A stretch of DNA of 64,000 nt from Candidatus Melainabacteria bacterium 17Bon1m (GTDB taxonomy: Bacteria > Cyanobacteriota > Vampirovibrionia > Obscuribacterales > Obscuribacteraceae): the NCBI GenBank assembly GCA_032128875.1, contig JAVLKG010000007.1:64001-128000 (forward strand), given 5' to 3'. The notes under the pieces are model-generated. The model was not told where the DNA came from, searched no databases, and worked only from the letters and a program-made list of their open reading frames with translations. Shown here in pieces: positions 5,941-41,656 of the stretch (positions are counted from its first letter, which is position 1; every line of letters starts with the position of its first letter). The position numbers and the translations under genes were made by a program.

Positions 5941-6185
5941 ACCACCCTCTTTACTTCACACGGAAACAACCAAATAACTTCTCTATCGTTCAACTTCTAG
6001 ACATCAACGTCGCCCGGACTTAAGGCCGTAGTTAACGCTCTTCTGAGCGAAGACAACGACTTTCAATCCGGGCTTTTAGATCTCCTGCGGACCACGCCCC
6101 GTTTCCACCTCCGACCTAGCGCAACAGGCGACAGGCTCAGGTGGGTAGCGACGTTGTTCCTGCATCGGAGAAAGGAGACCTGAAT
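5941..6185 (+). promoter_or_regulatory. Structured 5' leader of mgtC-family gene
   Basis: G-poor tract (4 G in 5941-6000), long hairpins 6012-6073 and 6081-6171, the second abutting SD AAAGGAG. Confidence 0.5.
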
Positions 6186-6863
6186 ATGCTCAGTAACCTG
6201 TTCACTGATATCATGGCCAACCCCATCGTGCAGCAGATGCACACGTACATGCCGCATGTTTTGCTGGCAATTGCGTTGGGTGCTGGTATCGGACTCGAGC
6301 GCCGTCATCACAACAAGATCGCCGGTGTTCGTACCCATTTGCTCGTCTGCGTGAGCTCTTGCATCATCACGCTGATGGGCGCACTGATCGTCAAAGCGGC
6401 AGGCATCGGAGACGCCACCCGAATTGCCGGACAAATTCTGCCTGCTCTGGGCTTCATCGGAATGGGCGTGATCAGTCGCAAAGGCTGGACGACTTCCGGT
6501 GTCACCACGGCGGCAACGATTCTCTTCACTGCCGGCGTCGGCATCATGCTGGGTTACGGATACTTTTCTCCGGCCGTCGTCGTGTCCATTGTGACCATGA
6601 CGATGGTTCAGCTCAGCTACTGGATTTTCCCCAACACCGACAGCTGGCATGGGTTGCGGGTCGTTTGTCCGGAGGAGCACTTCCATGAGGTCCGCAAACT
6701 CTTCGGCGAGCGCGCCAAGCTGGAGAGTCTCTCCAAGAACAACGGCAATTGTTCTTTCCTCCTGCTGGCCGAGCTGAGCACCGATGAAATCGATGACCTC
6801 ATCGCGCAGCAGGTGCACAACCCTCACATCATCACGATCGAGCTCGCTGAGGCGAAGGAATAA
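6186..6863 (+). CDS. mgtC: MgtC/SapB family membrane protein
   Basis: LGAGIGLER...AGVRTHLLV...DATRIAGQI...GFIGMGVI...GVTTAATI motifs; SD upstream of ATG 6186. Confidence 0.9.
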   Translation: MLSNLFTDIMANPIVQQMHTYMPHVLLAIALGAGIGLERRHHNKIAGVRTHLLVCVSSCIITLMGALIVKAAGIGDATRIAGQILPALGFIGMGVISRKGWTTSGVTTAATILFTAGVGIMLGYGYFSPAVVVSIVTMTMVQLSYWIFPNTDSWHGLRVVCPEEHFHEVRKLFGERAKLESLSKNNGNCSFLLLAELSTDEIDDLIAQQVHNPHIITIELAEAKE

Positions 6864-6960
6864 CCTCGCTCTTCTGTAGTCGAAACAGTGCCCGGACGTC
6901 CTGCGGCTGAGCTTTTGCTCCGTCGCCGGCGTCCGCAGGCACGCAACTTACGAGCAACAA

Positions 6961-7572
6961 ATGAGCCTGAAATCCAAACTGATCGCAGCATTGCTTGCAG
7001 CACTGCTGGTATTCTCAGGTGGCGTCTACACTGGGTATCGCATCCAGCCGGCGCCCATGCAGGGGCAACTCGAGACGGTTTTCACGCCGTACGAGGATGG
7101 TCTGCAAGCCTACCTGCGCTTCCTCGATCGCGCGGAAAAATCCGTGCATATCGCCGTCTACACCTTCACCGACCCGCGCATCTACGACAAGCTCCTGGAG
7201 CTGCATGCGCGTGGGGTGAAGGACATCCACATCTTGATCGACCTCTCGCAAACGCGCGGCTGGTCGGGAGATGACATCGAGAAAGGCATCGGTCGCCTGC
7301 GAGCAGCGGGTATCGAAGTCGTGATCGGGACTTCCGAAAAGAGCAACCAGATCATGCACTCGAAGTACACCATCGTCGATGGTGTCTGGGTCGAAGACGG
7401 CAGCTGGAACTACACCAAGCTCGCCAACAAGCAAGCCAATTACCTGAACTTCAGCTACGACTCAAGGCGTGGCGCGTTGTTCATGGCCAACTGGCAGCGC
7501 ATGTATGTCTTCATGAAAGCGCAGCAAGACGCGCGTGATGCGGCTGAGAAAACCGCACCCCGCAAGCGCTGA
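6961..7572 (+). CDS. Single-domain phospholipase D/Nuc-like protein with signal peptide or N-terminal anchor
   Basis: HSKYTIVD (HxKxxxxD) followed by GSWN; AEKSVHIAVYTFTD; hydrophobic N-terminus. Confidence 0.9.
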   Translation: MSLKSKLIAALLAALLVFSGGVYTGYRIQPAPMQGQLETVFTPYEDGLQAYLRFLDRAEKSVHIAVYTFTDPRIYDKLLELHARGVKDIHILIDLSQTRGWSGDDIEKGIGRLRAAGIEVVIGTSEKSNQIMHSKYTIVDGVWVEDGSWNYTKLANKQANYLNFSYDSRRGALFMANWQRMYVFMKAQQDARDAAEKTAPRKR

Positions 7573-7602
7573 AGCGTATAAGCACTGTTAAAACAGGAGT
7601 TT

Positions 7603-7836
7603 GTGATGAAACAAAACAACAAACGCGGTCGATTCGACTTCAAGGTCGGCGACCGTGTCGAGATCACGCGCAAGGACATTGCCTGGGGATCTCGCAAGAA
7701 ACAGCGCTACGGCTACGTCACTGGCATAGACGGCGCCTACCACTACGTGCGCCCGCTGTGGTGGAAGCAAGACGAAGTCTTCGAGCTGTACGCCGGAGAG
7801 ATTCGTCACGCGCCACTCAAGAAGAAGAAGGGCTAA
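7603..7836 (+). CDS. Small basic KOW/SH3-like protein
   Basis: FKVGDRVEITR...YGYVTGIDG; SD AGGAG at 7595; codon style matches neighbours. Confidence 0.7.
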   Translation: MMKQNNKRGRFDFKVGDRVEITRKDIAWGSRKKQRYGYVTGIDGAYHYVRPLWWKQDEVFELYAGEIRHAPLKKKKG

Positions 7837-8070
7837 GCATCAGGGACGCGAGCGTTCGCGTTCTTTCCTCAAGCCGCGGCGCCAGCAAGTGCCCAGTGCG
7901 ACCGTCTTTGAGGTTCATGGCCTGTGTCTTTTACGCGCGCTTCGAGCGTGCGGGATACAGGCCGATTTTCATGACTCAGAGGGCGAGAAAGAAAAGAATC
8001 GCTCTCGCAGAGGAAACCACACCGCAGGAGATGGCACTCTTCACTGCGCGCCGGTTTCTGGAGTCTCTTC

Positions 8071-8982
8071 ATGCGACCACGCAAAATCACTATCGTTTTC
8101 AATCCGAAGGGCGGCTCGGCTAAGGTCAACACCGTGACCCAGCTCGCTCAAATCTTCCGCTCTCTCGGCATCGAGACGACTGTTGTTCATACCACCGCAG
8201 AGCCGGGCTCCGCGACAAAACTGGCTCGTCAGGCTGCGCTTGACGGTGCCAATGTCGTGATTCCGTTCGGCGGCGACGGCACTGTTCGTGCTGTGGCTGA
8301 GGGCCTCATCGGCACCGAAGCCGTGCTCGCGGTCTTCCCCGGCGGCACCGGCAACTTGTTTGCCCGGTCGTTCTACGCCAACCCGACCGTCGAGCAGTTC
8401 GCCGACATGGTGGTCAACGGCACTCCCCAGCCCATCGACATGGTCAAACTCGCCTACAGCGATGCGGCCGGTCAGGAGCACACGCAGTATCAGCTCGTGG
8501 CGCTCGGTCTGGGCAAGGTGTCGGATGCGATTTCGGAAGCGAATCCCTTCTTCAAGCGCATGTTCGGGAAGCTCGCTTATGTGGCGCGCGTCATCCGTGC
8601 CTGCCTCTCTCCCAACCCGCTGCGCTTCCGCCTCACGGCGAACGGCAAGGTTCGCGACAGCAGCGCGGCGGCGGTGTTCGTCCTCAATGTGACACCACCG
8701 ATGATGTCAGCACTGAGCCGGGGCGTTTCCGCTTCGGACGGGTTGCTCGACGTCGTCGTCATCAGCGGCGTGAACACCTGGCAGTTGATCGGCTTTGCCT
8801 GCGCAATGAGCTTCGGCCGTCCCGAAGGCAGCCGTCACTACCACAAGTTCCGCACCGAGGAGCTGACGATCGAATCTTCGGGACCAGTTATCCCGAACAT
8901 CGACGGCGACTCCGGCAAGCCCACGCAGTCCTTGCGCGTCACCAACGTCAAGGGCGCAATCAAGGCGATTCTCAGCTACTGA
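8071..8982 (+). CDS. Diacylglycerol/lipid kinase family protein (YegS/DgkB-like)
   Basis: VFNPKGG, GGDGT, PGGTGNLFAR, DGLLDV and NIDGD motifs. Confidence 0.92.
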   Translation: MRPRKITIVFNPKGGSAKVNTVTQLAQIFRSLGIETTVVHTTAEPGSATKLARQAALDGANVVIPFGGDGTVRAVAEGLIGTEAVLAVFPGGTGNLFARSFYANPTVEQFADMVVNGTPQPIDMVKLAYSDAAGQEHTQYQLVALGLGKVSDAISEANPFFKRMFGKLAYVARVIRACLSPNPLRFRLTANGKVRDSSAAAVFVLNVTPPMMSALSRGVSASDGLLDVVVISGVNTWQLIGFACAMSFGRPEGSRHYHKFRTEELTIESSGPVIPNIDGDSGKPTQSLRVTNVKGAIKAILSY

Positions 8983-9114
8983 GTGTCGCAAGGCGGAATG
9001 CGTCCTAACGCGTTCTTGCCAACAATGTCCATTCTTCACCGCGCAAGCACCGGCTCTGATTCGCTCAGAGTCCGGTTCTTCGCACAAATACTCCAACTCT
9101 GGAGGTACCAAACT

Positions 9115-10041
9115 GTGAATATCGAAAACATTCTGGCCGTGCTGGCAGACCACTGGGTCTGGCTGGCAGTCGTGCTGGCAGTCGCTACTCTCGGGCTGTA
9201 CGTCGCCAAACGCTACAGCTTCTGGAAGGGCGAAGCCAAAAAGTTGCTGGATGGCGGCTATCTGCCGGCCCCGCCGACTTTTCTGGCGCGCCTCTTCTTC
9301 GCCATGGCTACCAGGTTGATTGTCTTCCTGGTCGTCGGGCCCGTGAAGGTCGTTGGTCGTAAGAACGCCCGCTATGACGGCAGGCTCTTGATCGCACCCA
9401 ACCACACTTTCCAAATGGACTTTGCGGTGACGCGTACGGCTCTGCCGTGCCACTACACGCAAATCGCCAAACAGGCTGAAGTGCAGGGCGCGCGCGCCAT
9501 CTTCGCTGCCTGGGTCGGCACCATCGCCGCCAAGGTCGAAGGCGGTTCGGCAAAACCCGGTCAGGGTGCGGCAGTCGTTAAGGCAGCCGCCAACTACCTG
9601 GCTTCGCGCTCCGACACCCGCCTGCTGCTCTTCCCGCAGGGCAAGCTCGTTTACGACAACGTGCTGCGCCCCGAGGACTTCCGTACGGGAGCGGCTCGCA
9701 CCATGGCTCTGGCTGTCAAACAGCTGGGCACGGACGAGTCTGTTGCACTCCTTCCTGTCGGGCTTCACTACAAGCGCGATCCGAAGCACGCCTCGCTGTT
9801 CCAGCGTGCGGTCGGAGCAATCGCGCGCGTCATACCACCCCTCAAGAAGTTCCGCACGTGGGCTGATGTGACGAAGAACCCCGATGGTTCGAAGAACGTC
9901 AACAAGTTCCGCAATTACGGCGCCACCGTCGTGATCGGGGAGCCCATCCCGTTTTCCTCACTGCCCGAAGATCCCCATGAATGCTCGCAGTTCATGCGAG
10001 CCAAGATTCAGGAGTTGCTGGATCAAGCTGAAAAGCTGTAA
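9115..10041 (+). CDS. Lysophospholipid acyltransferase (PlsC/LPLAT family)
   Basis: NHTFQMD (HX4D), LFPQG, VVIGEPI; N-terminal TM; GTG 9115 with SD GGAGG at 9101. Confidence 0.85.
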   Translation: MNIENILAVLADHWVWLAVVLAVATLGLYVAKRYSFWKGEAKKLLDGGYLPAPPTFLARLFFAMATRLIVFLVVGPVKVVGRKNARYDGRLLIAPNHTFQMDFAVTRTALPCHYTQIAKQAEVQGARAIFAAWVGTIAAKVEGGSAKPGQGAAVVKAAANYLASRSDTRLLLFPQGKLVYDNVLRPEDFRTGAARTMALAVKQLGTDESVALLPVGLHYKRDPKHASLFQRAVGAIARVIPPLKKFRTWADVTKNPDGSKNVNKFRNYGATVVIGEPIPFSSLPEDPHECSQFMRAKIQELLDQAEKL

Positions 10042-10084
10042 TTCAGCAGCCCTGCTTCTTGCTAGATAGCAAGGAATCAGGACT

Positions 10085-10915
10085 ATGAGTATCTCAATCA
10101 TCATCGCGATTGCTGCGGTGAGCCTAGTGGCGCTCAGCCTGGTGTGGAAGTATGCGGTGACTCCGCGCGTAAAGCGCTGGAAAGAGTACACCAAGCAGCT
10201 TGCCACCTGCGGGTATCTGGCGCCTCCGCCGACGGACAAAGGGCTGCGTGGACTGCAGCGTTTCTCGCGGTTCATGACCTTCCTCCAGGTCGGCAAAATT
10301 CAGGTTGTTGGGCGGGAAAACCTGGACTCAGTGCCAGGTCCGTTCATGTACTCGTCGAACCATCCCTTCGGTGTTGACGTGGCGGTAATCCCGCTCGTCA
10401 TCAACCGGAAGGCTCGCTACATGGCGCACGAAACCGTGTTCACTTTCGCAGGTGGACTGGGCGCGCACATCGTCGGGCCGTGGGGTGCCTTCGTTGCACA
10501 TGACAGCATCCGCGATGGCGGTGTGCGTGCTCGTGCCGCTGCGACGAAGGTTTTGACGACGGGGCAGAATCTCGTCCTTCTGCCTGAAGGTCTCACCAAC
10601 ATGGAACCAACCATGTTGCCGTTCAAGGACGGCGCAGTTCGTATCATCAAGCAAGCCGCGAAGGAACTGGGTCGCGACGTGTGGATCATGCCTGCTTACA
10701 TGCGCTACGGGGCTTACCCGGGCAAGTGGATTCAGAAGCTCCCGCGTCCGATTCAGTACACCCTGACGATGCTGCTCTTCCCGTTCTACCGCCGCGGCGT
10801 CAAGGTCGTGATCGGCAAGCCGATTGCAGCCAGCCAGTTCTCGGCGGATGACGCGGAAGCGACTCTGCAGCTTCGCGCTGCCATCGAGGCTCTCGACCCG
10901 AAAACGGTCAAGTAA
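10085..10915 (+). CDS. Lysophospholipid acyltransferase (PlsC/LPLAT family)
   Basis: NHPFGVD (HX4D), LPEG, PFKDGA, VVIGKPI; N-terminal TM. Confidence 0.9.
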   Translation: MSISIIIAIAAVSLVALSLVWKYAVTPRVKRWKEYTKQLATCGYLAPPPTDKGLRGLQRFSRFMTFLQVGKIQVVGRENLDSVPGPFMYSSNHPFGVDVAVIPLVINRKARYMAHETVFTFAGGLGAHIVGPWGAFVAHDSIRDGGVRARAAATKVLTTGQNLVLLPEGLTNMEPTMLPFKDGAVRIIKQAAKELGRDVWIMPAYMRYGAYPGKWIQKLPRPIQYTLTMLLFPFYRRGVKVVIGKPIAASQFSADDAEATLQLRAAIEALDPKTVK

Positions 10916-11005
10916 GAGAGCAAACATCCACAACTTCCCAGGCCGGGGCACGTTGAAGCGACCTATACGGCGACTCTTCGTGCCCCGGTTCTTTCTAGGA
11001 CAAAT

Positions 11006-11329
11006 ATGCGCAAATTCGGAAACCTGCTGTACTGGGTGGCTTTCGCCATCGGTGCAGTCTTCCTCGTGGGCTCGACTTTCCCGCAAGCGCCGACCGGCGC
11101 CGCCTCGGGATTCCACGCCCTGATAGCATTCGGTGCCGCGTTCCTGCTGTCGGTCTTCGAAAAGGGCAACAAGACTGCCCTCCAGAAGATCTTCCTGGCA
11201 GCGTTCGGCGCCTTCGCAACCGGCGCAATCGCATACAGCCTTGGCTGGATCGGTTTTGTCGGCGCCTGCCTCAGCATGTTCATGGTCGCCACCATGAAGC
11301 TGGACGGCGGCGACCGAGACGCTGGTTAA
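11006..11329 (+). CDS. Small multi-pass membrane protein
   Basis: About four hydrophobic segments; SD AGGA; codon style matches cluster. Confidence 0.75.
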   Translation: MRKFGNLLYWVAFAIGAVFLVGSTFPQAPTGAASGFHALIAFGAAFLLSVFEKGNKTALQKIFLAAFGAFATGAIAYSLGWIGFVGACLSMFMVATMKLDGGDRDAG

Positions 11330-11456
11330 CACCGGCGCCTTGCATGTTCTCAAACTACAGCGAAAGCTAGGTGGAGGCGACCGGATCTGAAGTCGGAAAC
11401 GATGGAAGGTCCTGTCGCTTTTCACTTTCTTTGGAGTATCGAAAGGACTAAATGCC

Positions 11457-13283
11457 ATGAGACCCTCAACACTAACGGCCACTGACACGCTGCAGACGAC
11501 GTCAGGCGATGCCCTCGGATATCAACGCCCGCAATTGAGACGCGCATTCTGGCAGTCTCTCAACGGGCTCTGGCAGTTTTCTATCGACCGCGACAATACT
11601 CGCACCCAACCGAATCAGGTCGCGTTCGACCAACAGATCACGGTGCCTTTCGCACCCGAAACAGAAGCGAGCGGCATCAACGACACCGGTCTCTACCGGC
11701 GCGTCTGGTACCGCCGGCGGTTCACAGCTCCGCGCCTTACCAGAGGCGAACGGCTGCTCATCCACTTCGGTGCCGTCGACTACGCTGCGAAGGTCTGGAT
11801 CAACGGCAAGCCCGCCGCCGAACATGAAGGCGGATACACGCCCTTCTCCATCGATGCCACCGACTTTCTCAAGCGCGGCAACGCTGAGCAGGAAATTGTC
11901 GTGCGCGCCGACGACGACCCATTCGATCTTTCCAAACCGCGCGGCAAACAAGACTGGGAGCTGAACGCTCACTCGATCTGGTATCCGCGCACAACGGGCA
12001 TCTGGCAGCCGGTCTGGCTGGAAAAGGTGCCGCAGACCCATATCGTGGCGATCAAATGGACCTCGTCCGTCGAACGCTTCGAAATCGGTCTCACCGTGAC
12101 GCTTTCGGAAGCAACGCGCCCGGGCTCTCGCTTGAGCGTCAAGCTGGAAGCCGACGGGAAGACTCTGGTCGATGACACCTACACCGTGAGCGAAGCGGAA
12201 GCGAATCAGCACGAGCTGTCGCGACGCATCAGCATTCCGGACGGCGGCATCGACGACATTCGTGCGCGCCTGCTCTGGAGCGTTCACAACCCCAAGCTGA
12301 TCGACGCTCACCTGGTTCTTTCCGAACCCGGCGCCAAAAGCGAAAAGTCAGCCGACCGCGTGGAGAGCTACGCCTCGATTCGTTCGATCGAAGTGCAGCG
12401 TAATCGCTTCTGCGTGAACGATCGCCCAGAAACGCTACGCCTCGTTCTCAACCAGGGCTACTGGGAAAAGACAGGCATGACGCCTCCTGACGATGCGGCT
12501 CTGCAGAAGGACATTGAACTGATCAAGTCGATGGGCTTCAACGGCGTGCGCATGCACCAGAAGATCGAATGCCCGCGGTTTCTCTACTGGGCGGACAAGC
12601 TCGGGCTCTACGTCTGGGAAGAAATGCCCAGCGCTTACGCCTACAGCGATAAGACCGTCGAGCGCGTCAGTTCGCAGTGGATCGAAGCCATCAAGCGCGA
12701 TGCGAGCCATCCTTGCATCGTTGCCTGGGTGCCGATCAACGAGTCCTGGGGCGTGCCAAGCCTGTCTCAGGTCGATGCGCAGAGGCGCTTTGTCGCCTCC
12801 ATGTATCACCTGACCAAGTCGCTAGACTCCTCGCGACCGGTCATCGGCAACGATGGATGGGAGATGGTGGAAACAGACATCATCGCCATTCACGACTACC
12901 ACCACAACCCGGATGTACTGGAGGAGCGGTATCGTAATGATGCTGCCACCATCGAGCGCACGCTGCGCTTGGAACGTCCCGGACACCGCCTGCTTTTGCT
13001 CGAAGGGCTGCAGCACGACGAGCGTCCGCTCATGCTTACCGAATTCGGCGGCATCAAGCTGTCCGCAGACGAGTCGGCATGGGGCTATTCGGTGGCACGC
13101 AACGAGGAAGAGCTCAAGCAGCTCTATCTTCGATTGATGACTGCCATCAATCGCCTGCCAATCCTGGCGGGGTTCTGCTACACGCAGTTCACCGACACCT
13201 ACCAGGAAGCAAACGGGCTGGTGAAGATGGACCGCACGCCGAAGTTCGACCTCGAGGAAATGAAACGCGCCACCCGCGGCTAA
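11457..13283 (+). CDS. Glycoside hydrolase family 2 (beta-galactosidase/glucuronidase-like)
   Basis: SLNGLWQF, IHFGAVDY, HEGGYTPF, GIWQPVWLE, MGFNGVRMHQK, WVPINESWG, TEFGG, GFCYTQFTD. Confidence 0.92.
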   Translation: MRPSTLTATDTLQTTSGDALGYQRPQLRRAFWQSLNGLWQFSIDRDNTRTQPNQVAFDQQITVPFAPETEASGINDTGLYRRVWYRRRFTAPRLTRGERLLIHFGAVDYAAKVWINGKPAAEHEGGYTPFSIDATDFLKRGNAEQEIVVRADDDPFDLSKPRGKQDWELNAHSIWYPRTTGIWQPVWLEKVPQTHIVAIKWTSSVERFEIGLTVTLSEATRPGSRLSVKLEADGKTLVDDTYTVSEAEANQHELSRRISIPDGGIDDIRARLLWSVHNPKLIDAHLVLSEPGAKSEKSADRVESYASIRSIEVQRNRFCVNDRPETLRLVLNQGYWEKTGMTPPDDAALQKDIELIKSMGFNGVRMHQKIECPRFLYWADKLGLYVWEEMPSAYAYSDKTVERVSSQWIEAIKRDASHPCIVAWVPINESWGVPSLSQVDAQRRFVASMYHLTKSLDSSRPVIGNDGWEMVETDIIAIHDYHHNPDVLEERYRNDAATIERTLRLERPGHRLLLLEGLQHDERPLMLTEFGGIKLSADESAWGYSVARNEEELKQLYLRLMTAINRLPILAGFCYTQFTDTYQEANGLVKMDRTPKFDLEEMKRATRG

Positions 13284-14170: not shown

Positions 14171-14238
14171 AGAGCTTCAACGAGCCGCATAGTGGCTTTC
14201 CGGGTATAACATCTCGGGGTTCGGGCTTTGCCGTAATC

Positions 14239-16623: not shown

Positions 16624-16703
16624 ATTTACCTCGAATTGCACATAGCACAATATCCCTGTATGCCCATGGGCGCGGGGTATAAGAACTATGGGGGTGAATT
16701 CGA

Positions 16704-18935: not shown

Positions 18936-18995
18936 TCAGCGCGCTCTTTGCCTTTACGTCAATGAAAATCGTTTGCCTCTAACCTGTCAGCGCGT

Positions 18996-22147: not shown

Positions 22148-22153
22148 AGAGCC

Positions 22154-22159: not shown

Positions 22160-22172
22160 TGGCATTTTGTAA

Positions 22173-27124: not shown

Positions 27125-27165
27125 CAAACAGTTTCAATCCAAGCGAATCTAAAAGAGAAAAACGC

Positions 27166-33671: not shown

Positions 33672-35843
33672 TCAGTCCTGATAGAACGCCTGACCGCGAG
33701 CGGCCATGTCCTTGATGAGCTGGCAAGGCGCGTAGTTTTCACCCGCAACCTTGGACAGCATCTCGAGCTTCTGGTGCACGACCTTGATGCCCACGCTGTC
33801 GGCGTAGCGCAGCGGACCACCCAGGAAGGGCGGGAAGCCGGTGCCGAAGATCATGGCGAGATCGAGCGTGCGCGGATCGGACACGATGCCCGACTCCAGA
33901 ACGCGCGCCGCCTCGTTGACCATGGCGAGCGCCAGACGATCCTGAATCTCACCACGCTGCTTCTTGACCGGCTGCGCAGTGACCCAGGCCTGGACCTTCG
34001 GGTTGATGCCGGCGCGCTTGCCCTCGGCGTAGGCGTAGATGCCCTCGCCGCCCTTCTTGCCGACCAGCTTCGCCTCGTCGACCTTCTTGAGGATGGTCGG
34101 GGGGTTCAGACGGTCGCCGAAGGCGTTGTGCAGAACGCGCGCGACGTGACCGGCAACATCCAGCCCGACTTCGTCGAGCAGGGTGAGCGGACCCATCGGC
34201 ATGCCGAAGGACTGCATCGTCTTCTCGATGTCCTCAGCCGCAACGCCCTGCTCGAGCAGCCGAACGGCTTCCAGCAGGTAGGGCGTGAGGATGGCGTTGA
34301 CGATGAAGCCGGCACGGTCGAGACAGAAGACCGTGGTCTTGCCCAGCTTGAGCGAGAACTCCTGAGCCGAAGCCGCAGCCGCGTCAGAAGTGGTGTCGCC
34401 GTAGATGATCTCGACGAGAGGCATCTTGTGCACCGGGTTGAAGAAGTGCACGCCCACGACGAGTTCGGGGTTGCGAGCGCCGGACGCCATCTCGCTGATG
34501 GACAGCGAAGACGTGTTGGTCGCGAAGATGAACGGCTTCTTGATGACCTTTTCCAGGTCGGCCAGCACGATCTTCTTCACCTTCATCACTTCGACGACGG
34601 CTTCGATCACCATGTCGCAGTCAGCCATGTCGGCGTAGTCGAGCGTGCCGTGGACGGCAGCCAGACGCGAAGCACCTTCGGTGGCCGAGAGCTTCTTCTT
34701 AGCGACCAGACCATCGAACAGTCCCTTCACGGTCGCCATGCCGGCGTCCAGAGCTTCCTGTTTGATGTCCTTGAGCACGACGTCGTAGCCGGCGTAGGCA
34801 GCCGCCTGAGCGATGCCCGCGCCCATGACGCCAGCGCCGATGACGCCGACCTTCTTGATCTTGAGAGCCGGTGCCGCGTTGTTGCGCGCCTTCTTCGACT
34901 CGGTCTGAGCGAAGAAAATGTTCACCAGGTTCTTGGACACGGCGCTGACAGCCAGGCGCCCGAAAGCGCGCGACTCAGCTTCGTAGGCGCCGGCGCGATC
35001 GGCCTTGTTGCCGACTGCTTTCACGGCGACCTTCAGGGCGTCGACGGGAGCCGGGTACTTGCCGCGAGTCTCCTTCATCACACCAGCCATCGCAGCCTTG
35101 AACACAAGGGCGCGACCGGCAGCGGTGTTGGTGAGGAAGTTCTCGACGGCGCGCACCTTCATGGGCTTCACATAGCGCTTCACCTTGCCGGTGAGAGCGA
35201 TCTGCTCAGCACGCTCCAGGAGCGACGCTTCCTCGACAGTCTCGTCGACCAGACCGAGCCGCCACGCCTTGTGCGCGTCAGCGGTGGCGCCGGTCAGAAG
35301 ACCGCCCCAGCCGATGCCCTTGGGCAGGAACGGAAGGGGCGGCAGGACCGCCGAGGGAAGACCGATCAGGCGAGGCAGGCGAACGGTGCCGCCCCAGCCG
35401 GGGATGAAGCCGAGCTTCACTTCCGGCAGACCGATGGCGGTCTTGGGATGGTTGGAGGCGATGCGGTAGTGGCACGCGAGAGACATCTCGGTGCCGCCTC
35501 CGAGGCAGATGCCGTTGATGGCGACGACGACGCGGAAAGGCATCTTCTCGATCTTCGAGAAGATTTCCTTGCCGACGTTGCTCGCGTCATAGGCGGCTTT
35601 GGCGGTCTGATTCTGGACCGCCTGGATCTCTTCGATGTTAGCGCCGAACACGAAATTGTCGGGCTTACCGGAGTGGATAACCATGCCCTTAACGGCTTTG
35701 TCGCTGGCAGCCTGATCGAGACATGCGATCAGGTCCCGGAGCACCCGCTCGGACAGCAAGTTGTACTTGCTGTCCGGCAGGTCCAGGGTCACCAACGCCA
35801 CGCCGCTATTGAGCATCTTCATGGTCACAGCTGGCTTAGTCAT
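33672..35843 (-). CDS. fadJ: Fatty acid oxidation complex alpha subunit (enoyl-CoA hydratase / 3-hydroxyacyl-CoA dehydrogenase)
   Basis: CLGGGTE, GLPEVKLGFIPGWGGT, GAGVMGAGIA, IEAVVE, TNTSSL, HFFNPV, GMPMGP, GTGFPPF. Confidence 0.93.
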   Translation of the reverse strand: MTKPAVTMKMLNSGVALVTLDLPDSKYNLLSERVLRDLIACLDQAASDKAVKGMVIHSGKPDNFVFGANIEEIQAVQNQTAKAAYDASNVGKEIFSKIEKMPFRVVVAINGICLGGGTEMSLACHYRIASNHPKTAIGLPEVKLGFIPGWGGTVRLPRLIGLPSAVLPPLPFLPKGIGWGGLLTGATADAHKAWRLGLVDETVEEASLLERAEQIALTGKVKRYVKPMKVRAVENFLTNTAAGRALVFKAAMAGVMKETRGKYPAPVDALKVAVKAVGNKADRAGAYEAESRAFGRLAVSAVSKNLVNIFFAQTESKKARNNAAPALKIKKVGVIGAGVMGAGIAQAAAYAGYDVVLKDIKQEALDAGMATVKGLFDGLVAKKKLSATEGASRLAAVHGTLDYADMADCDMVIEAVVEVMKVKKIVLADLEKVIKKPFIFATNTSSLSISEMASGARNPELVVGVHFFNPVHKMPLVEIIYGDTTSDAAAASAQEFSLKLGKTTVFCLDRAGFIVNAILTPYLLEAVRLLEQGVAAEDIEKTMQSFGMPMGPLTLLDEVGLDVAGHVARVLHNAFGDRLNPPTILKKVDEAKLVGKKGGEGIYAYAEGKRAGINPKVQAWVTAQPVKKQRGEIQDRLALAMVNEAARVLESGIVSDPRTLDLAMIFGTGFPPFLGGPLRYADSVGIKVVHQKLEMLSKVAGENYAPCQLIKDMAARGQAFYQD

Positions 35844-35913
35844 AGGTTCCTCGTTTTTGTTTTGGAACTTGGAAGTAGGGAACGAGTTTGCAACTCAACG
35901 AGTGATGAGATGC

Positions 35914-37164
35914 TCACGCCGACGGGTTTTCGATCAGGGTCGCGATGCCCATACCGCCGCCGATGCAGAGTGCAGCGATGCCGCGCTTCTTGCCCTGACG
36001 CTTCAGCTCGTGAGCGAGCGTCAGCAGAACGCGAGCGCCGGACATGCCGATCGGGTGACCGAGGGCGATGGCGCCACCGTTCACGTTGACCTTGTTGCGG
36101 TCCAGACCAAGCAGCTTCTCGCAGGCCAGGTACTGGGCGGCGAAGGCTTCGTTGATCTCGATGAGGTCGATGTCGGCGATGGTCAGATTGTTCGCGGCGA
36201 GAAGCTTGTTGATGGCTTCCACCGGACCAATGCCCATCTGTTCGTGGTCGACGCCGGCAACCGCGTGGTCGACGAGCAGCGCGAGCGGCTCGACGCCAAG
36301 CTCGGCAACCTTCTCGTCAGACGCGACCAGCAGCGCGCAGGCACCGTCATTGATACCAGAGCTATTGCCAGCGGTGATGTCCTGAGTCTTCAGAACACCG
36401 CCCAGGCTGTTGAGCTTCTCCAGGGTGGTGCCACCCGGATTGCGCTCGGACTTGACGCCGCGAGCGTGCTCGTCACGGCTGAAGAAGCCGCGGCCGGTCT
36501 CGATGGGCTCAATTTCCACATCGAAGCGTCCGGACGTGATGGCCGCATGCGCGCGCTCCTGAGAGCGATACGCGTAGGCATCGGCGTCTGCACGCGCGAT
36601 CTGATAGGTGTTGGCCAGGCGCTGAGCCGTGCCGGACATGTAGACGGTCTTCATGTCCCAGATGAGCTTCAGAGGCGCCAGACCGTTGTCGGCCAGCGCG
36701 ATGACAGGGCGGGGGCCCTGCGGCTTGATCCACTTGCTGAACCACTTCACGATGGGTCCAGACCAGCGGAGGCTGCCGGGGAGTTGGTAAGGGATGGTGG
36801 ACATGGACTCGGCGCCGACGGCAAGCACGAGGTCAGCCTTTCCCAGCCAGATCTTTTCAGCGGCGTTGTTCGCGGCTTCCATGCCGGAACCACACTGACG
36901 CTGAACAGTCACAGCGGGAACGGAGTCAGGCACGCCCGCGAGCTGCGCAGAGACACGACCAGTGTTGGGCGTGTAGGACGACTGGTAGCCGTGACCCATG
37001 ATCACCGCGTCCACTGCGGACGGGTTGACCTTGGACCGGCGCAGAACGCCCTTGATCACATGCGCTGCAAGCGTGTCGACAGTGACCGATCGCAGAGATT
37101 TGCCGAACGAGCCAATCGGAGTCCGAACACCAGAGATGAGCCAGGCATTTTTCTTGGCTGTCAT
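35914..37164 (-). CDS. Acetyl-CoA C-acyltransferase (thiolase, FadA/FadI-like)
   Basis: RTPIG, QRQCGSG, NDGA, NEAFA, GHPIGMSG, CIGGG; SD AGGAG before ATG 37164. Confidence 0.95.
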   Translation of the reverse strand: MTAKKNAWLISGVRTPIGSFGKSLRSVTVDTLAAHVIKGVLRRSKVNPSAVDAVIMGHGYQSSYTPNTGRVSAQLAGVPDSVPAVTVQRQCGSGMEAANNAAEKIWLGKADLVLAVGAESMSTIPYQLPGSLRWSGPIVKWFSKWIKPQGPRPVIALADNGLAPLKLIWDMKTVYMSGTAQRLANTYQIARADADAYAYRSQERAHAAITSGRFDVEIEPIETGRGFFSRDEHARGVKSERNPGGTTLEKLNSLGGVLKTQDITAGNSSGINDGACALLVASDEKVAELGVEPLALLVDHAVAGVDHEQMGIGPVEAINKLLAANNLTIADIDLIEINEAFAAQYLACEKLLGLDRNKVNVNGGAIALGHPIGMSGARVLLTLAHELKRQGKKRGIAALCIGGGMGIATLIENPSA

Positions 37165-37325
37165 TGTTTTTCTCCTAGTAGACTCTTGCAGGAGGGCACC
37201 CGTGACAACGAGTCGCCGAGCGCCCTCCAGCAGGTTTGCCAAGCGAAGAAGTCGCTTGACTGATTTAGCTTAGCAGTAACGAGATCGCCTTGGTGTGCGT
37301 TTGAACCAGACCTTTCGGCTAGTTC

Positions 37326-38411
37326 TTAGTACAGCCCGTGCTTGGCCATCAGCTCATCGGTCATCGCAGCAAGCGTGCCTTCCTGAGCGTCGGTGCAGAC
37401 GAACTGAATCTCCTTGAAGCGCTCGGCGATCTCGTTCGCCCGCGCCAGGTTGTCACCGGCAAGTACACCGCTGGCAGTGAGTGCCGGCAGCGAACCCATG
37501 AAGCCCGCCATGACCGCTTGCCACTTCTGGTCGCGCGTGAGCGTGAACTGAAGCGAGCGGAAGTTCATGGCAGTCGGTGTTGCGAGCATGAGCCCACCCT
37601 CGCCGGTCAGGTCTTCCTGGTCCGGCGGGATGCACTCATCACCGCAGATGGTCTTCCACAGCTTGTAGATGCGGCGCGACCACTTCGACGAGTCATCGCC
37701 GACGTCCATCGCCACAATCTTGTTGCGGGAAGCACCGAAGAACGTCTGCACGAGACCGACAGGGCAGCGCCCTTCCGGACCCATTGCACCGTCGTGAAGA
37801 AGCACGTCCTCGAAAGGCACAGCGTCGATCACACCCGGAACAGCGCACGAACCGCGAACGGCGATGCCGAGCGGACCGGGCTTGTCCGAGAGCTGGATGA
37901 TGTTGCCATCTTCCTTGTGCTCGTAGATGCCGTGATCAGTGAAGACGTAGCGCGAACGACCGGCGACAGCCATCGTCCAGTAGCCCTTGGGCCAGCCGGA
38001 TTCGGTGACATTGTCGCCCGCCTTCTTAGCGAGGTCTTCGAGGAAAGTGCCGAGTTTCTCCGAGCTCATCACGCCCTTCACCGGACGAGTCTTCTCGTAC
38101 CGGCGCTGCATGAAGTAAGCGAAGATAATCTTGAAGATGCCGGAATGGCGAGTCAGCTTCTCGGCGAAATCGAGGTCAAGAGCGAGGTGAGTCAGCTCCT
38201 TTGCGTCCATTCCGAGAGCGAGAAGCGCGGTGGGGATGGAACCGCCGCTGATGCCGCCCATGGAGTGGAACTTCTTTTGCCCAGCGACGCTGAGAGCCAA
38301 GACAGTTCCAGTCCCGGCGAGGATAGCCCGCGACCCGCCGCTGCCACAGACAAGATGCAGTGACGGCGTATCGAGGTTGCGAGCACCAGAGTCATTATTT
38401 TGCGTTGTCAT
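37326..38411 (-). CDS. Patatin-like phospholipase
   Basis: GSGGSRA oxyanion loop, GISGG nucleophile elbow, SCAVPG, HDGA. Confidence 0.85.
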   Translation of the reverse strand: MTTQNNDSGARNLDTPSLHLVCGSGGSRAILAGTGTVLALSVAGQKKFHSMGGISGGSIPTALLALGMDAKELTHLALDLDFAEKLTRHSGIFKIIFAYFMQRRYEKTRPVKGVMSSEKLGTFLEDLAKKAGDNVTESGWPKGYWTMAVAGRSRYVFTDHGIYEHKEDGNIIQLSDKPGPLGIAVRGSCAVPGVIDAVPFEDVLLHDGAMGPEGRCPVGLVQTFFGASRNKIVAMDVGDDSSKWSRRIYKLWKTICGDECIPPDQEDLTGEGGLMLATPTAMNFRSLQFTLTRDQKWQAVMAGFMGSLPALTASGVLAGDNLARANEIAERFKEIQFVCTDAQEGTLAAMTDELMAKHGLY

Positions 38412-38891
38412 GGTGCGCTCCAATTAGAGGCCGATGTCCGCACCAGAGCAGGGGGGACACTTTTTCTGTTTGAGAGACGGCCTGTCATTTAAGCCAGCCA
38501 AAAATGGCAGGCGTGAAACTTAGACAGAAAGAACAGAGAAGGAATTCGGGTTAGAGGGTGGTGAAAGAAAAAAATGGAAGCGATAAAAGTACTCGTGAAA
38601 TCTAGGAAGTTTGGAGGCCCAATAACAATCGCCTTCTTCAGCCTTTTGGCTTAATAGATCTCATTCAGAGCTACGGATTAACTAGAGTTTGTAATTAGCG
38701 CTGATTTCTTACCTCGAAAAGAAGCCATGAACATGACATCCTCAAAGCGGCAACGAACCTCTTTTCAACTCGACCAAACACACAAAACACGCGCCGTTTA
38801 CCACTCGCTCCGGCTCCGCCAGTGATACCACTCCCTCATGACTTCTAATTGTCAAGACCGCGATGCTAAGCGGTTTTGCTTACAAACGGCC

Positions 38892-38918
38892 GAGCTGTGT
38901 CACAACCGATCACAGCTC
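38892..38918. promoter_or_regulatory. Palindrome in divergent fad promoter region (candidate operator)
   Basis: GAGCTGTG-N11-CACAGCTC. Confidence 0.4.
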
Positions 38919-39287
38919 ACGCCGCTTTGCTAAGTTCGATCGCATCGATCGCTGTTTTCAATGTCAGGCTGCGCACCAAAGCCAATACCACGACTTTTGC
39001 ATGAGCCGTTTCTCTTTTCTTGAACTCTTGAGATAGCGCGAAATGACCTTGTAGTCTGAGACGTTTATTTTGCAACTAATTCGTTTACACGTTCCCGGCT
39101 TCTAACTAAGTCTCCACAGCACTTCTACAGCTCTCCACTCGCTCTTTCGGGAGTGTCGGGGAGCTTTTGCTCTTGAGTTCAGTACAAGCCCGGATCTTGT
39201 CTCAACCAAATCTAGCCACAGCTCAGAACTTTAGCTCCTGAGCTCATTCTGCGTTCCCTTTCAACGAAACGCACCAAGGAGTTATAC

Positions 39288-41186
39288 ATGGCATCACAAG
39301 AAACACTGATCCATCGCTTCTGGCGCCACGTCTTCGAGAAATCTCACCGTCCCGCCTTCCTCGTGAAGAACCGGCGACCGCTTGGTGAGCCAATCTTGAT
39401 TGGCGGTGGTCCAATGCATGCTCCGCATGTCTATGTTCCGAAACGCGAGCCTTACGTTGCGCTTACTTTCGAGGACGCTGGCGTGCTCGTTGCGGAAATC
39501 GTGAACTTCCTTCGCCAGTGCGGCTTCAAGCGCGGCGATAAGGCAGCCATCCTGGCTTGGAACAAACCCGAATGGGTTTGGACGGATCTCGCGATCCAGA
39601 CCATGGGCGGCGTCACGGTTCCCATCTATCCGAACTCGAACGGCGAAGCAGTCGACTACATCCTGGCCAACTCCGGCGCGACCTTCCTTTTCGGTGACAG
39701 CTCCGAGCAGCTCGCCAAGGTCAGCCCCGATGCGCCGGTGAAGAAGTTCCTGCTCAACGAGGCGATCATCAACCTTGCCGACTACGAAGCGCAGGCTCCG
39801 AGCCGCAAGGAATACTCGATTCTGACTCGCAATCTGCTTCTCGAGATCGAGCAAGTGGTCAAAGGCGATCAGCGCAACGCGATTCTGGCCGGCGCTCTGG
39901 CGTCGATCACTCGCAGCGACCCGGCAACCATCATCTACACCTCCGGCTCGACCGGGCGGCCCAAGGGTGTCGTGCTCACGCATGGCAACATTGCCTCCGC
40001 CTGCGAGACCCTGAGTGAGACTGCCTTCCAGTTCAACGAGGAAGACGTCGCGCTCAGCTATCTGCCCCTCGCCCACGTGTACGAGCGAGTGGACGGCAAT
40101 GCGCTCACCCTGTGGAATGCCATCCCGTCTGCGTACTGCTCGCCCGAAGAGGTCGGTGACGTGCTTCCTGTCGTGAAGCCCACCATGCTCATCGGCGTGC
40201 CGGCGGTGTGGCGCAAGATGAAAGACAAGATCGACAAGAAGCTTGTCGCCGAAACCGGCGTCAAGGGCAAGCTTGTCTCCTGGGCACTCAAGCAGAACAA
40301 GCCAGGCTTCTGCCGCTGGCTTGCCGACAAGCTTGTGTTCAAGAAGGTGCGTGCAGGCATGGGCGGGCGCTTGCGCATCGTCATGTCCGGCGGCGCGGCT
40401 ATCTCGTCGGACATCCTCAACTTCTTCAACCTGGTCGGCATCAAGCTTCTGGAAGGTTACGGCATGACCGAAACCTCCGGCGGTGTGATCGTCAACACGC
40501 CCACTGCCAACAAGGTCGGCACCGTGGGCAAGGTCGTCTCCAACGTTCTCATCAAGGTCGTTCCGCGCGAAGCCGACCTGGACAAGCCGAACACCGGCGT
40601 GCTCTGGATGAAGAACAAGTACGAGCACGGTCCGATCTTCGGCGGCTACCTCGGTCTGCCGGAAGAGAACGCCAAGTCGTTCGACGCGGAGGGCTACTTC
40701 TGCTCGGGTGACGTCGTGCAGATCGTCGACGGTGACTACGTTGCCATCCGCGGTCGCGCCAAGCGGCAGTTCAAGACGGACCAGGGCAAGTACGTTTCGC
40801 CGGACGACGTCGAGAAGGCGTTCGACGGCGAGTCAATCGTGGGCTTCATGGTCCCGATCGGCGACGGTCTGCCGTTCGTCTCGGCACTCGTCTTCGTCAA
40901 CCAGCTCACAGCCAAGGATCACCTGAAGGCCAAGGGCATCACTGCTCCGTCCGGCCAGGATACCGCGGCATTCTACGCTTCGCATCCGGAGATCGTGCAG
41001 CTGATCGAACAGGCGAAGGAAACCGCCAACAAGAAGCTGCAGCGCTGGGAGACCGTCAAGAAGGTCACCATCCTGCCGGTGGAAGCGACCGTTGCAAACG
41101 GTCTGCTGACGCCGACTCTCAAGATTCGTGCCGAGGAAGCGATGAAACGCTACAAGGCCGAAATCGAGGCGATGTACAAGAAGTAA
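39288..41186 (+). CDS. fadD: Long-chain fatty acid-CoA ligase (AMP-binding)
   Basis: IIYTSGSTGRPKGV, LPLAHVYE, SGGA, EGYGMTET, SGD, TPTLK; SD AAGGAG. Confidence 0.93.
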   Translation: MASQETLIHRFWRHVFEKSHRPAFLVKNRRPLGEPILIGGGPMHAPHVYVPKREPYVALTFEDAGVLVAEIVNFLRQCGFKRGDKAAILAWNKPEWVWTDLAIQTMGGVTVPIYPNSNGEAVDYILANSGATFLFGDSSEQLAKVSPDAPVKKFLLNEAIINLADYEAQAPSRKEYSILTRNLLLEIEQVVKGDQRNAILAGALASITRSDPATIIYTSGSTGRPKGVVLTHGNIASACETLSETAFQFNEEDVALSYLPLAHVYERVDGNALTLWNAIPSAYCSPEEVGDVLPVVKPTMLIGVPAVWRKMKDKIDKKLVAETGVKGKLVSWALKQNKPGFCRWLADKLVFKKVRAGMGGRLRIVMSGGAAISSDILNFFNLVGIKLLEGYGMTETSGGVIVNTPTANKVGTVGKVVSNVLIKVVPREADLDKPNTGVLWMKNKYEHGPIFGGYLGLPEENAKSFDAEGYFCSGDVVQIVDGDYVAIRGRAKRQFKTDQGKYVSPDDVEKAFDGESIVGFMVPIGDGLPFVSALVFVNQLTAKDHLKAKGITAPSGQDTAAFYASHPEIVQLIEQAKETANKKLQRWETVKKVTILPVEATVANGLLTPTLKIRAEEAMKRYKAEIEAMYKK

Positions 41187-41224
41187 TCGCTTCTTTTGTG
41201 TGTGGCACCCATGTGAGAACTTCG

Positions 41225-41278
41225 TAGGCAAGCCGCATGCGGCTTCCTGTTCAGGGCAGCGCCTGCGCTGCCCCTACG
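41225..41278. repeat. REP-like doublet with GTAG/CTAC feet
   Basis: GTAGGCAAGCCGCATGCGGCTT ... GGGCAGCGCCTGCGCTGCCCCTAC. Confidence 0.75.
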
Positions 41279-41374
41279 GGGTTTTCATTGTGGGTGCGGC
41301 ACCCTGTCCTTGCTTGCTGCTAATGCAGATTATTCGAACCGGGCTTTAGGAGCCGGTTCGTAGAGGACAAAATC

Positions 41375-41656
41375 ATGAACACGTTTGCAAGCCTGATTCC
41401 CACCATTATCGTTGTGCTGGTCGTGGCGTTCACTTCCGGAGCAGTTCAGCAGCTCGTGCTGAATCTGTTCAACGTGAACAGCATCGCCAACCCCGGTACT
41501 CAGAAGTTCGTCCGCGCCGCTCTCAACGGTCTCGTCTTCACGGCGATGTTCGCGATCGGCTTCGCCCTCATCGGAAACCCGTACACCCTCGGATCCTTCC
41601 TGATGCTCTGGGTGATCGTCGGCGCCCTCGAGTACATCCTGCCGAGCCGGCGTTAA
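41375..41656 (+). CDS. Small three-TM membrane protein
   Basis: Three hydrophobic segments; SD GAGGA; GC-rich codon style; hairpin CGAACCGG/CCGGTTCG just upstream. Confidence 0.75.
   Translation: MNTFASLIPTIIVVLVVAFTSGAVQQLVLNLFNVNSIANPGTQKFVRAALNGLVFTAMFAIGFALIGNPYTLGSFLMLWVIVGALEYILPSRR

Follow-up and report, generated by a model that had tools for sequence, protein, structure and literature searches.

The stretch analysed here, hereafter the window, comprises 64 kb of contig C7 (C7:64001-128000) from the assembly of Candidatus Melainabacteria bacterium 17Bon1m (G000; Vampirovibrionia, Obscuribacterales; 7.55 Mb in 35 contigs), a non-photosynthetic relative of the cyanobacteria represented by a metagenome-assembled bin that is 93% complete with an estimated contamination of 4.5%. 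It carries seven units of genes, which we term the GC class, that stand apart from the surrounding backbone genes by their GC content at third codon positions (GC3): the 18 genes of these units lie at a GC3 of 0.69-0.85 and all others in the window at 0.45-0.57, and over 1 kb the units reach a GC content of 0.57-0.66 against 0.45-0.51 around them. Our analyses suggest that this composition is maintained on coding sequence across a whole genus, possibly through selection acting on messenger RNA.

Gene content and leaders of the GC-rich units

Unit 1 (6186..13283, plus strand; GC3 0.72-0.78, with orthologs of equal GC3 in the related genomes G007 and G010) can be described as a phospholipid-turnover set. 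It encodes an MgtC-family protein (6186-6863), a phospholipase D (PLD)-like protein (6961-7572), a DAG-kinase/YegS-like lipid kinase (8071-8982), two PlsC-type acyltransferases (9115-10041 and 10085-10915), a 108-aa open reading frame (ORF) of no family (11006-11329) and a GH2 glycosidase (11535-13283). On the same strand lie the gene of an S1-like multi-domain RNA-binding protein of 516 aa (22922..24469, GC3 0.80) and that of a NadD paralog (25007-25720, GC3 0.69; 162.9 bits for a NadD cut-off of 150). The minus strand carries the gene of a DUF4139/DUF4140 protein (29738-31390, GC3 0.85), whose orthologs in four relatives have a GC3 of 0.80-0.87, and a fatty-acid degradation operon (33672..38411, GC3 0.75-0.84) made of a patatin-like phospholipase (37326-38411), a thiolase (35914-37164) and a FadJ/FadB-type multifunctional enzyme (33672-35843); the proteins of this operon are 97-99% identical in G007, at a fourfold divergence of 0.14-0.20. 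A FadD-like long-chain fatty-acid-CoA ligase (39288-41186, plus strand, GC3 0.80) completes the divergent patatin-thiolase-FadJ / FadD pair of units 4 and 5, and is followed by a 94-aa ORF of no family (41375-41656, plus strand, GC3 0.81). Lipid enzymes (PLD-like, DAG-kinase-like lipid kinase, the two acyltransferases, patatin, thiolase, FadJ-like and FadD-like) thus make up most of the GC-class members of the window.

The sequence-only reading of this DNA had described, ahead of most of these units, long leaders that open with a G-poor tract of the coding strand and continue as hairpins up to the ribosome-binding site. Its spot counts of G and C were reproduced exactly, both in the units (40/60 at 23041-23100, 42/60 at 34021-34080) and in the backbone (27/60 at 14401-14460, 24/60 at 43141-43200), as were the G counts of five tracts: 4/60 at 5941-6000, 7/60 at 22741-22800, 5/60 at 24781-24840, 3/60 at 38580-38521 (minus strand) and 3/40 at 39101-39140. 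Stretches of 60 nt with at most five G represent only 0.2% of all those in the window. Under a stricter rule (40 nt with at most 3 G and at least 70% pyrimidine, located within 400 nt upstream of a gene with an upstream gap of at least 150 nt), a tract is found for three of the ten window GC-class genes with such a gap.

The leader of unit 1 (5941..6185, plus strand) consists of a G-poor, pyrimidine-rich 5' part and a long conserved hairpin, after which comes a UCUCC stretch whose predicted partner is GGAGA at the ribosome-binding site; none of 200 shuffles folds as stably. That of the S1-like gene (22700..22921, plus strand) likewise starts with a pyrimidine-rich part, followed by nested helices that include a hairpin at 22820-22839. 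Upstream of the NadD paralog, in the region from 24781, a strict tract precedes a hairpin at 24935-24987 (plus strand, z -2.56), and the upstream region of the DUF4139/DUF4140 gene (to 31650, minus strand) holds a strict tract ~207 nt before the ATG. The divergent control region (38412..39287, 83% identical to G007) contains one tract for each direction, at 38521-38580 in the patatin leader (minus strand) and at 39101-39140 in the FadD leader (plus strand), the latter with a hairpin at 39129-39165 (plus strand, z -2.84). Inside unit 1, a plus-strand hairpin between the MgtC-family and PLD-like genes (6893..6935) reaches -28.8 kcal/mol (z -5.60) vs -23.7 for the complement, and the 498-nt spacer before the lipid-kinase gene has two more on that strand, at 7842-7865 (z -3.11; sense -12.8 vs antisense -7.9 kcal/mol) and 7919-7963 (z -7.40; -30.9 vs -20.7 kcal/mol). 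All six hairpins named by the sequence-only reading surpass dinucleotide shuffles (z -2.6 to -7.4) and are more stable on the coding strand than on the complement. These and all folding results below are predictions, and samples of 55-120 genes per class were folded in the genome-wide comparisons.

A second codon class confined to one sector of the genome

Genes were called with our own script, whose two-class codon model yielded 5707 genes over 85% of the assembly; a rule combining Shine-Dalgarno (SD) and coding scores refined the starts and gave back the start coordinates of the sequence-only reading. Over these 5707 genes GC3 is bimodal, with a major mode at 0.50, a trough at 0.65 and a lesser mode at 0.71-0.80, so that the separate GC-rich codon class first proposed from the window stands genome-wide. 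With GC3 of at least 0.65 as its definition and the remaining genes as backbone, the GC class comprises 532 of the 5707 genes (~9%, about 1 in 11), arranged in 200 same-strand runs of 2.66 genes on average, the longest holding 16. GC contents at first and second codon positions (GC1 and GC2) are marginally elevated in the class and its amino-acid usage is near that of the backbone, as seen for lysine (5.6% vs 6.2%).

The units had been described as dispersed, which is true inside the window but not of the genome, since 505 of the 532 GC-class genes fall within 1.42 Mb, that is 18.7% of the assembly. This sector is made of contigs C7, C8, C13, C15, C18, C19 and C23 and the first parts of C5, C3 and C12, where the class accounts for about one gene in two; it is nearly absent from the large contigs C1, C2, C4 and C6, and C5 and C3 run unbroken from mosaic into pure backbone. 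The GC class is a genomic compartment alternating with ordinary genes rather than a dispersed set. Core genes reside there as well, namely those for trmD, RNase P RNA, 6S RNA, topoisomerase I and a Clp-family ATPase (ClpB-type domains), as shown by the presence of trmD and RNase P RNA in the backbone stretch 13412..22146 of the window.

What the compartment encodes is broader than the window would suggest. Among 120 GC-class proteins of the sector, 101 Pfam families are matched, the commonest being patatin, peptidase S41, MoxR-type AAA, HAD and acyltransferase (3 proteins each); of the 25 commonest families listed, those linked to lipids are patatin (3), acyltransferase (3) and AMP-binding (2), and the others include GH1, a serpin, glucoamylase and M16/M24 peptidases. 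The enrichment in lipid enzymes claimed from the window therefore holds for the window members and is not supported genome-wide. By comparison, 120 backbone proteins of the sector contigs are led by TPR proteins (8), Ser/Thr kinases with leucine-rich repeats (LRR; 6) and histidine kinases (4), with PAS and response-regulator families following (3 each). Because the Pfam profiles of the two sets of 120 proteins differ in this manner, the sector can be said to write its enzymes in the GC-rich style and its signalling proteins in the ordinary one. Several GC-class genes are additional copies of backbone genes: the genome holds three full-length FadJ-like genes and five NadD-like matches, the best-scoring of which lies on backbone contig C11. 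As a separate observation, two tandem NadD-like domains occur within one 494-aa GC-class open frame at C8:3236-4483.

Same genes, same places, same GC3 in relatives

In G007, each of the 18 GC-class genes of the window has an ortholog in synteny, and so do those covered by contigs of G010, G003 and G002. Gene order and class agree throughout the compared DNA, which amounts to 94 kb in G007, 39 kb in G010, 35 kb in G003 and 13 kb in G002. The GC3 of syntenic genes is kept in at least five other genomes of the genus (these four and G011), as exemplified by the ortholog triples 0.72/0.72/0.68, 0.80/0.84/0.82 and 0.85/0.87/0.84, with backbone neighbours near 0.5; a FadJ ortholog at the family level, of 57% identity, still has a GC3 of 0.84. 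Class boundaries coincide with gene ends, and backbone genes lying 130-170 nt from GC-class genes hold a GC3 of 0.5. In G018, from the sister genus, the GC3 of 64 ORFs over 100 kb forms one mode only, located at 0.60-0.65 and followed by a tail. Because the same genes occupy the same places with the same GC3 in at least five independently assembled genus genomes, the GC class is, to judge from these alignments, neither a recent transfer nor an assembly artefact.

It had also been noted that no integrase or tRNA target flanks the units. In agreement, the 8 tyrosine-recombinase matches of the genome all lie outside the mosaic contigs and no tRNA gene is found in the window, the sole one of contig C7 being at C7:154479. 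A pattern scan for a donor lineage matched only Obscuribacterales/Melainabacteria records. Of the hallmarks of genomic islands, a composition unlike that of the host is present; mobility genes at the borders and absence from close relatives are not.

Slow synonymous evolution on coding sequence

Synonymous sites of the GC class change more slowly than those of the backbone, by a factor of two to three, and in three species pairs their median fourfold divergence is about half: 0.132 (70 genes) vs 0.276 (93) for G011, 0.243 (35) vs 0.551 (28) for G007 and 0.384 (10) vs 0.603 (13) for G010. Recent exchange does not explain these low values, because the divergences of 55 out of 61 GC-class genes agree with the order of the species, and near-identity to a relative was seen for a single gene. 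Substitutions at fourfold sites on the G000 and G011 branches were polarised by parsimony with G007 as outgroup. In 62 GC-class genes, changes from A/T to G/C (W>S) amount to 0.173 per W site and the reverse (S>W) to 0.093 per S site, from which an equilibrium GC content (GC*) of 0.65 (0.62-0.68) is obtained; in 66 backbone genes the figures are 0.2625, 0.247 and 0.515 (0.49-0.54). We reason that 0.65 would be a lower bound, since, with an outgroup rich in GC, parsimony takes true W>S changes for S>W.

Spacers tell a different story from genes. Those between GC-class genes (32 regions, 9331 sites) have a GC content of 0.523 and a GC* of 0.534, those between backbone genes (17 regions) 0.455 and 0.416, so that non-coding DNA is not enriched to the extent of the fourfold sites within genes, whose GC content (GC4) is 0.82. 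Since the spacers of the class stand at 0.523, the force that holds GC3 near 0.8 would act on coding sequence and not on the DNA region. GC3 dips sharply at gene starts, where codons 2-6 have a GC3 of 0.50 vs a gene mean of 0.76 in the GC class, and of 0.44 vs 0.51 in the backbone.

Messenger-RNA features of the class

The messages of the two classes differ in several respects. An SD core at -17..-4 precedes 79.6% of 530 GC-class genes vs 49.0% of 4866 backbone genes (control position, 8.1% vs 6.6%), and 92% vs 78% start with ATG. Gaps between divergent neighbours have a median of 832 nt in the GC class (n=107) vs 270 nt in the backbone (n=1789), co-directional gaps being similar (medians of 213 and 228). 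In a sample of 120 genes per class, taken from the 271 GC-class and 2069 backbone genes with gaps of at least 200, the leaders (-150..-1) fold with a mean z of -2.34 vs -0.69 (p=1e-11), and 53% vs 14% of them lie below z -2; the stronger folding of GC-class leaders, expected from the window, was therefore found against shuffles and backbone alike. The predicted surplus of folding is no speciality of leaders: coding regions and 3' ends share it, with mid-gene z of -1.30 vs -0.37 and 3'-flank z of -3.85 vs -2.11 (55 genes each). We consider GC-class messages over-folded because shuffles that preserve both protein and codon usage fold less (mid-gene z -1.01 in the class, -0.33 in the backbone; 60 each, p=0.0013). 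A repetitive nature of the hairpins, as repetitive extragenic palindromes (REP) or miniature inverted-repeat transposable elements (MITE), was ruled out: leaders are mostly unique, with another genome match for 54 of 271 in the GC class and 98 of 400 in the backbone.

The G-poor pyrimidine tract of the coding strand, too, extends beyond the window. The strict tract occurs in 69 of 331 GC-class upstream regions vs 165 of 2558 in the backbone, and its purine-rich mirror in 7 and 173, respectively; in divergent gaps the counts are 41/103 vs 83/1467 (odds ratio 11, p=2e-21). The 3' end of the tract lies at a median of 177 nt before the ATG. Metaprofiles agree: upstream of GC-class genes with a divergent neighbour, G falls to 0.195-0.22 and T rises to 0.29-0.31 between -175 and -325, whereas the profile of backbone genes is flat. 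Pyrimidine k-mers are strand-asymmetric upstream of the class (ACTCTC, 40 vs 13). TATAAT was seen upstream of 2/331 GC-class and 164/2558 backbone genes and is rare on both strands alike; as an observation in its own right, this scarcity goes far beyond what the 6-point difference in GC content predicts. A sigma-70 scan of the examined leader regions found no promoter-like site, matches being below those of shuffles (3 vs 6.4 and 2 vs 2.5).

Two conserved leaders and an S1 paralog

Two leaders were aligned between genomes. In nine genomes, that of the S1-like gene keeps 88% column identity along 243 nt, the encoded proteins diverging by as much as 34%; RNAalifold predicts 61 pairs, with 95.4% of cells paired. 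Six pairs are altered on both sides, a number matched by 1 of 500 shuffles and to be compared with 1-2 in slid controls, and many alternations are of the U-G/C-G type, which would be mismatches if read on the opposite strand. The MgtC leader, aligned from 8 genomes, has 32 predicted pairs, among which 5 are compensatory, both partners having changed. Its first ~80 columns are unpaired and pyrimidine-rich with an invariant CTCTTTACTTCA block, and the consensus fold joins the UCUCC, likewise invariant, to GGAGA at the ribosome-binding site. Rfam recognised only RNase P RNA and 6S RNA in the 64-kb window and matched neither leader. By analogy with rpsA leaders, the covarying S1-like leader (~220 nt) may be regarded as a candidate autoregulatory element.

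The S1-like protein matches the Pfam S1 domain in 3 stretches, and up to 4 stretches with NCBIfam S1 models. Its best score against the rpsA equivalog is 181 bits for a cut-off of 624, and other models give 87-164 bits for cut-offs of 368-918; by these scores it is a paralog and not the rpsA equivalog. The gene is found, always GC-rich, in 9 of 13 genus genomes (counting G000) at 66-100% identity, and shorter S1-like matches (~32-34% identical to the query) occur on C19 and C3. G004 and G012 carry the FadJ gene of the class (92-93% identity) and show no match to the S1 paralog, on short contigs of genomes that are 83-90% complete. An Atlas search with the paralog returned generic S1 clusters, and its own membership ties it to the GC class, no further link having been found.

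The sequence-only reading had pointed out that C-rich, G-poor tracts also act as Rho loading sites. No match to the Rho RNA-binding domain (PF07497) was found in the 93%-complete G000, a control search being positive in 9 genomes; on this ground, Rho loading appears unlikely.

Other features of the window and the genome

Between unit 1 and the S1-like gene, the backbone stretch 13412..22146 (GC3 0.48-0.56) holds, besides trmD, two Ser/Thr kinase-LRR genes, a GT87 protein, a 239-aa ORF and RNase P RNA (21766-22146, minus strand, 256 bits). The 6S RNA, likewise within the mosaic sector, is at 58687-58898 (minus strand; 48.4 bits, barely over the gathering score). The two kinase genes are neighbours (14239-18935), with their leucine-rich repeats at the C-terminus. 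An insertion-sequence-type DDE transposase (DDE_Tnp_1_4; 27907-29409) of backbone composition sits between two GC-class units; it is probably a recent insertion, because the contigs compared from G007, G010, G003 and G002 lack a counterpart. At 5540-5674, a GC-rich hairpin, GGGGCGCATGCAATGCGCCCC, stands in four tandem copies with a period of 38, each followed on the minus strand by a T-run that gives it a terminator-like look; its core occurs 30 times on 12 contigs without linkage to the GC class, in the manner of a REP-like repeat. A 2014-aa open frame of backbone composition and unusually high GC1 (0.67) runs on the minus strand from window position 63846 onward to C7:133887.

Elsewhere in G000, dense arrays of 5 to 11 tRNA genes each lie on backbone contigs at C3:1007950-1010244, C1:269233-270141 and C4:286272-286734; one of them is ~6-8 kb from the tyrosine-recombinase matches C3:999817 and C3:1001144 and is possibly a mobile tRNA island. 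At C9:265840-267030 a tRNA-Sec gene adjoins the best tyrosine-recombinase match of the genome, and an island may have integrated at tRNA-Sec. An element of 26-28 nt at L035:1278-1305 of G011 recurs with 100% identity at dozens of G007 sites, as a short dispersed repeat common to both species.

Discussion

How can a discrete class of GC-rich genes persist, gene by gene, among ordinary neighbours? The explanation that we favour, to which we give a probability of about 0.5, is that selection on mRNA keeps GC-class operons GC-rich and strongly folded, and that their leaders set translation and stability. In such a scheme, these mainly enzyme-coding operons would be held as GC-rich, strongly folded messages, and their expression would be governed largely after transcription. 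The unpaired, pyrimidine-rich 5' end may serve as an entry site for a protein or a 30S subunit, and the conserved helices, in one case a predicted anti-SD:SD pairing, would gate the ribosome-binding site. The genes themselves could well have come by ancient transfer, which is likely and compatible with this scheme; the unusual feature would be their maintenance. It is tempting to go one step further and to picture a second kind of mRNA, used by ~9% of genes, hyper-structured, with pyrimidine landing pads and a strong SD, working as a genome-wide post-transcriptional switch that a dedicated factor such as the S1-like protein of the class reads or unfolds, and serving scavenging (lipases, proteases, glycosidases, beta-oxidation) in starvation or upon contact with prey. 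We hold this extended picture to be unlikely.

Several results weigh against selection on mRNA structure. Over ~250 nt, the five window leaders fold with z of -3.56 (unit 1), -2.82 (S1-like gene), -0.17 (NadD paralog, over 251 nt), -1.28 and +0.42: two of the five beat shuffles and three do not, among them, as whole stretches, the patatin and FadD leaders. The strict tract is present in only 21% of all and 40% of divergent GC-class upstream regions, and these regions are no better conserved than those of the backbone (median identity to G007 of 0.64 for both; 23 and 11 regions). Sense and antisense leaders of the class do not differ significantly in stability genome-wide (p=0.15), so the proposal that the G-U pairs of the hairpins denote RNA structure finds no significant support in the leaders of the class as a whole. 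The case for RNA rather than DNA structure rests on the two aligned leaders and on the six named hairpins, whose comparison is a biased test because they were pre-selected for G-U pairs. The idea of a regulon with a common upstream motif found no support in searches of a crude k-mer and dyad type: a dyad search (271 vs 2071 upstream regions) returned nothing but the composition of the tract, and TGTTAG (24/331 vs 140/2558), TTCTAG (31/331 vs 176/2558) and CCACC (93 sense, 95 antisense) are weakly enriched at most and neither class- nor strand-specific. GC* (0.65) falls short of the GC4 observed today (0.82), which is compatible with slow decay, and synonymous change could be slow in part because rarely transcribed genes mutate less.

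The alternative that survives best, unlikely though we find it in its full form, supposes that the operons were acquired long ago from high-GC, SD-using donors and are slowly drifting, their GC-richness and leaders having no special function. Accessory enzymes and extra copies (the five NadD-like and three FadJ-like genes, the S1 paralog) are in keeping with it, as is the distribution of the FadJ-type gene: it was found in 0 of 73 genomes sampled from the small-genome family f6, and its identity to other matches, sought in 200 genomes of the phylum, does not exceed 42%; the gap between GC* and GC4 and the marginal rise of GC1 and GC2 point the same way. Passive decay under one mutation regime does not, however, predict the 2.7-fold deficit of S>W changes per site relative to backbone genes on the same contigs. 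A GC3 that stays equal gene by gene in species whose backbone fourfold sites are near saturation (0.55-0.60), host-like amino-acid usage, the lack of integrases on mosaic contigs, a GC excess lost in the first five codons and kept elsewhere, and folding beyond synonymous-codon shuffles speak against it as well. Of this alternative, only the absence of maintenance is disfavoured; an origin by transfer is compatible with selection on mRNA.

It is, in our opinion, improbable that the sector is prone to recombination and owes its raised GC content to GC-biased gene conversion, or to a mutation bias of the region. Confinement of the class to one 1.4-Mb sector, its W>S-skewed substitutions, which are those expected of biased conversion, and the GC-richer spacers of the sector (GC* 0.534 vs 0.416) would agree with it. 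The composition of the class spacers, at 0.52 and not 0.8, nevertheless disfavours either process as the main cause, and other observations concur: class borders are gene ends, with backbone neighbours at a GC3 of 0.5 a mere 130-170 nt away, also in relatives; G-poor tracts survive inside units; synonymous divergence is lower, not higher; and the species order is followed by 55 of 61 genes, with 1 near-identical to a relative.

Ordinary translational selection, by which the GC class would be the most highly expressed set fitted to the tRNA pool, seems to us a similarly poor candidate. Slow synonymous rates, strong codon bias, strong SD and ATG use are in its favour, and so are the C-ending preferences (ATC, TTC, CGC, GGC) common to the class and to the 24 genes of the ribosomal-protein cluster on C10, our expression-linked reference. 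Elsewhere the two sets oppose each other, for Gln, Glu, Lys, TTG/CTG and GCG: the ribosomal-protein genes favour C or T endings (GCT/GGT/CGT) along with CAA, GAA and TTG, and the GC class favours C and G endings (CAG 1.60, AAG 1.60, CTG 2.41 and GCG, with TTG at 0.61). This bears out the earlier statement, made from hup (407-814, GC3 0.45), that the class differs from expression-linked bias. Its preference for CAG meets three copies of tRNA-Gln(UUG), no CUG anticodon having been found in the 93%-complete assembly, while C34 tRNAs are present for Lys, Glu and Leu(CAG); no specialised tRNAs of the sector were found, 1 of 68 tRNA genes lying on a mosaic contig. The class, finally, encodes accessory enzymes and not core machinery.

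That contigs were stitched from two organisms differing in GC content, as a metagenome-assembled bin with 4.5% estimated contamination might lead one to fear, is of negligible probability given the same alternation and junctions in the independently assembled G007, G010, G003, G002 and G011, the unbroken passage of C5 and C3 from mosaic to pure backbone, and 16 public runs (20 rows, 11 studies) that contain 50% or more of the words sampled from 20500-29500, a segment spanning four class junctions. Three RNA-Seq runs of one sample hold all of these words as contigs, which has no bearing on level or strand.

Our literature search retrieved no report of such a gene class in this lineage; the relevant passages on Obscuribacter phosphatis mention beta-oxidation and a GC content of 49.4%, and those passages are silent on heterogeneity (PMC4040986). 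If selection on mRNA structure or stability proves true, these bacteria would offer a natural system for expression programmes written in synonymous sites and untranslated regions, and GC3 alone would be unsafe for calling recent transfer. The analysis also yields two candidate new cis-regulatory leaders and, for a sister group of the photosynthetic cyanobacteria that has received little study, a genome compartment of 1.4 Mb.

Comparison with known systems

Structured 5' leaders that gate translation are well established, be they autoregulatory leaders of ribosomal proteins, such as the rpsA leader of E. coli, or leaders that sequester the SD by anti-SD:SD pairing. The long conserved 5' regions with compensatory helices before the S1-like and MgtC-family genes resemble them; the differences are the absence of an Rfam match and a feature that is statistical over ~270 unrelated leaders and known from sequence alone. 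Rho utilisation (rut) sites also occur in long leaders, for instance those of Salmonella mgtA/mgtCBR, and here too the early part of a long leader has 40-80 nt that are C-rich, G-poor and unpaired, again before an MgtC-family gene, in the first ~80 columns left unpaired by the consensus fold. Unlike rut-bearing leaders, those of G000 occur in a genome where the search for the Rho RNA-binding domain was negative.

The bimodal GC3 of grass genomes and the isochores of vertebrates are usually ascribed to biased gene conversion acting on regions. The GC class shares with them a bimodal GC3 and a long-lasting set of GC-rich genes, and departs from them in that its spacers are not GC-rich and its boundaries follow genes. 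Like genomic islands, it has an unusual composition, codes for accessory functions and is clustered on one portion of the chromosome; it differs by the lack of integrases, tRNA targets or mobility genes found at its borders, by its occurrence at the same sites in all sampled close relatives, and by a composition that appears maintained instead of ameliorating. Odd composition in bacteria is usually read as the fading trace of a transfer, and here the odd class looks actively maintained. A further parallel is offered by the three codon-usage classes of E. coli described by Medigue and colleagues, whose atypical class is reportedly AT-richer, patchy among strains and read as recent transfer. In both cases discrete codon-usage groups coexist in one genome, one of them apart from the expression-linked group; in the present case, however, the atypical class is GC-richer, syntenic across the genus, slower at synonymous sites and endowed with an mRNA architecture of its own.

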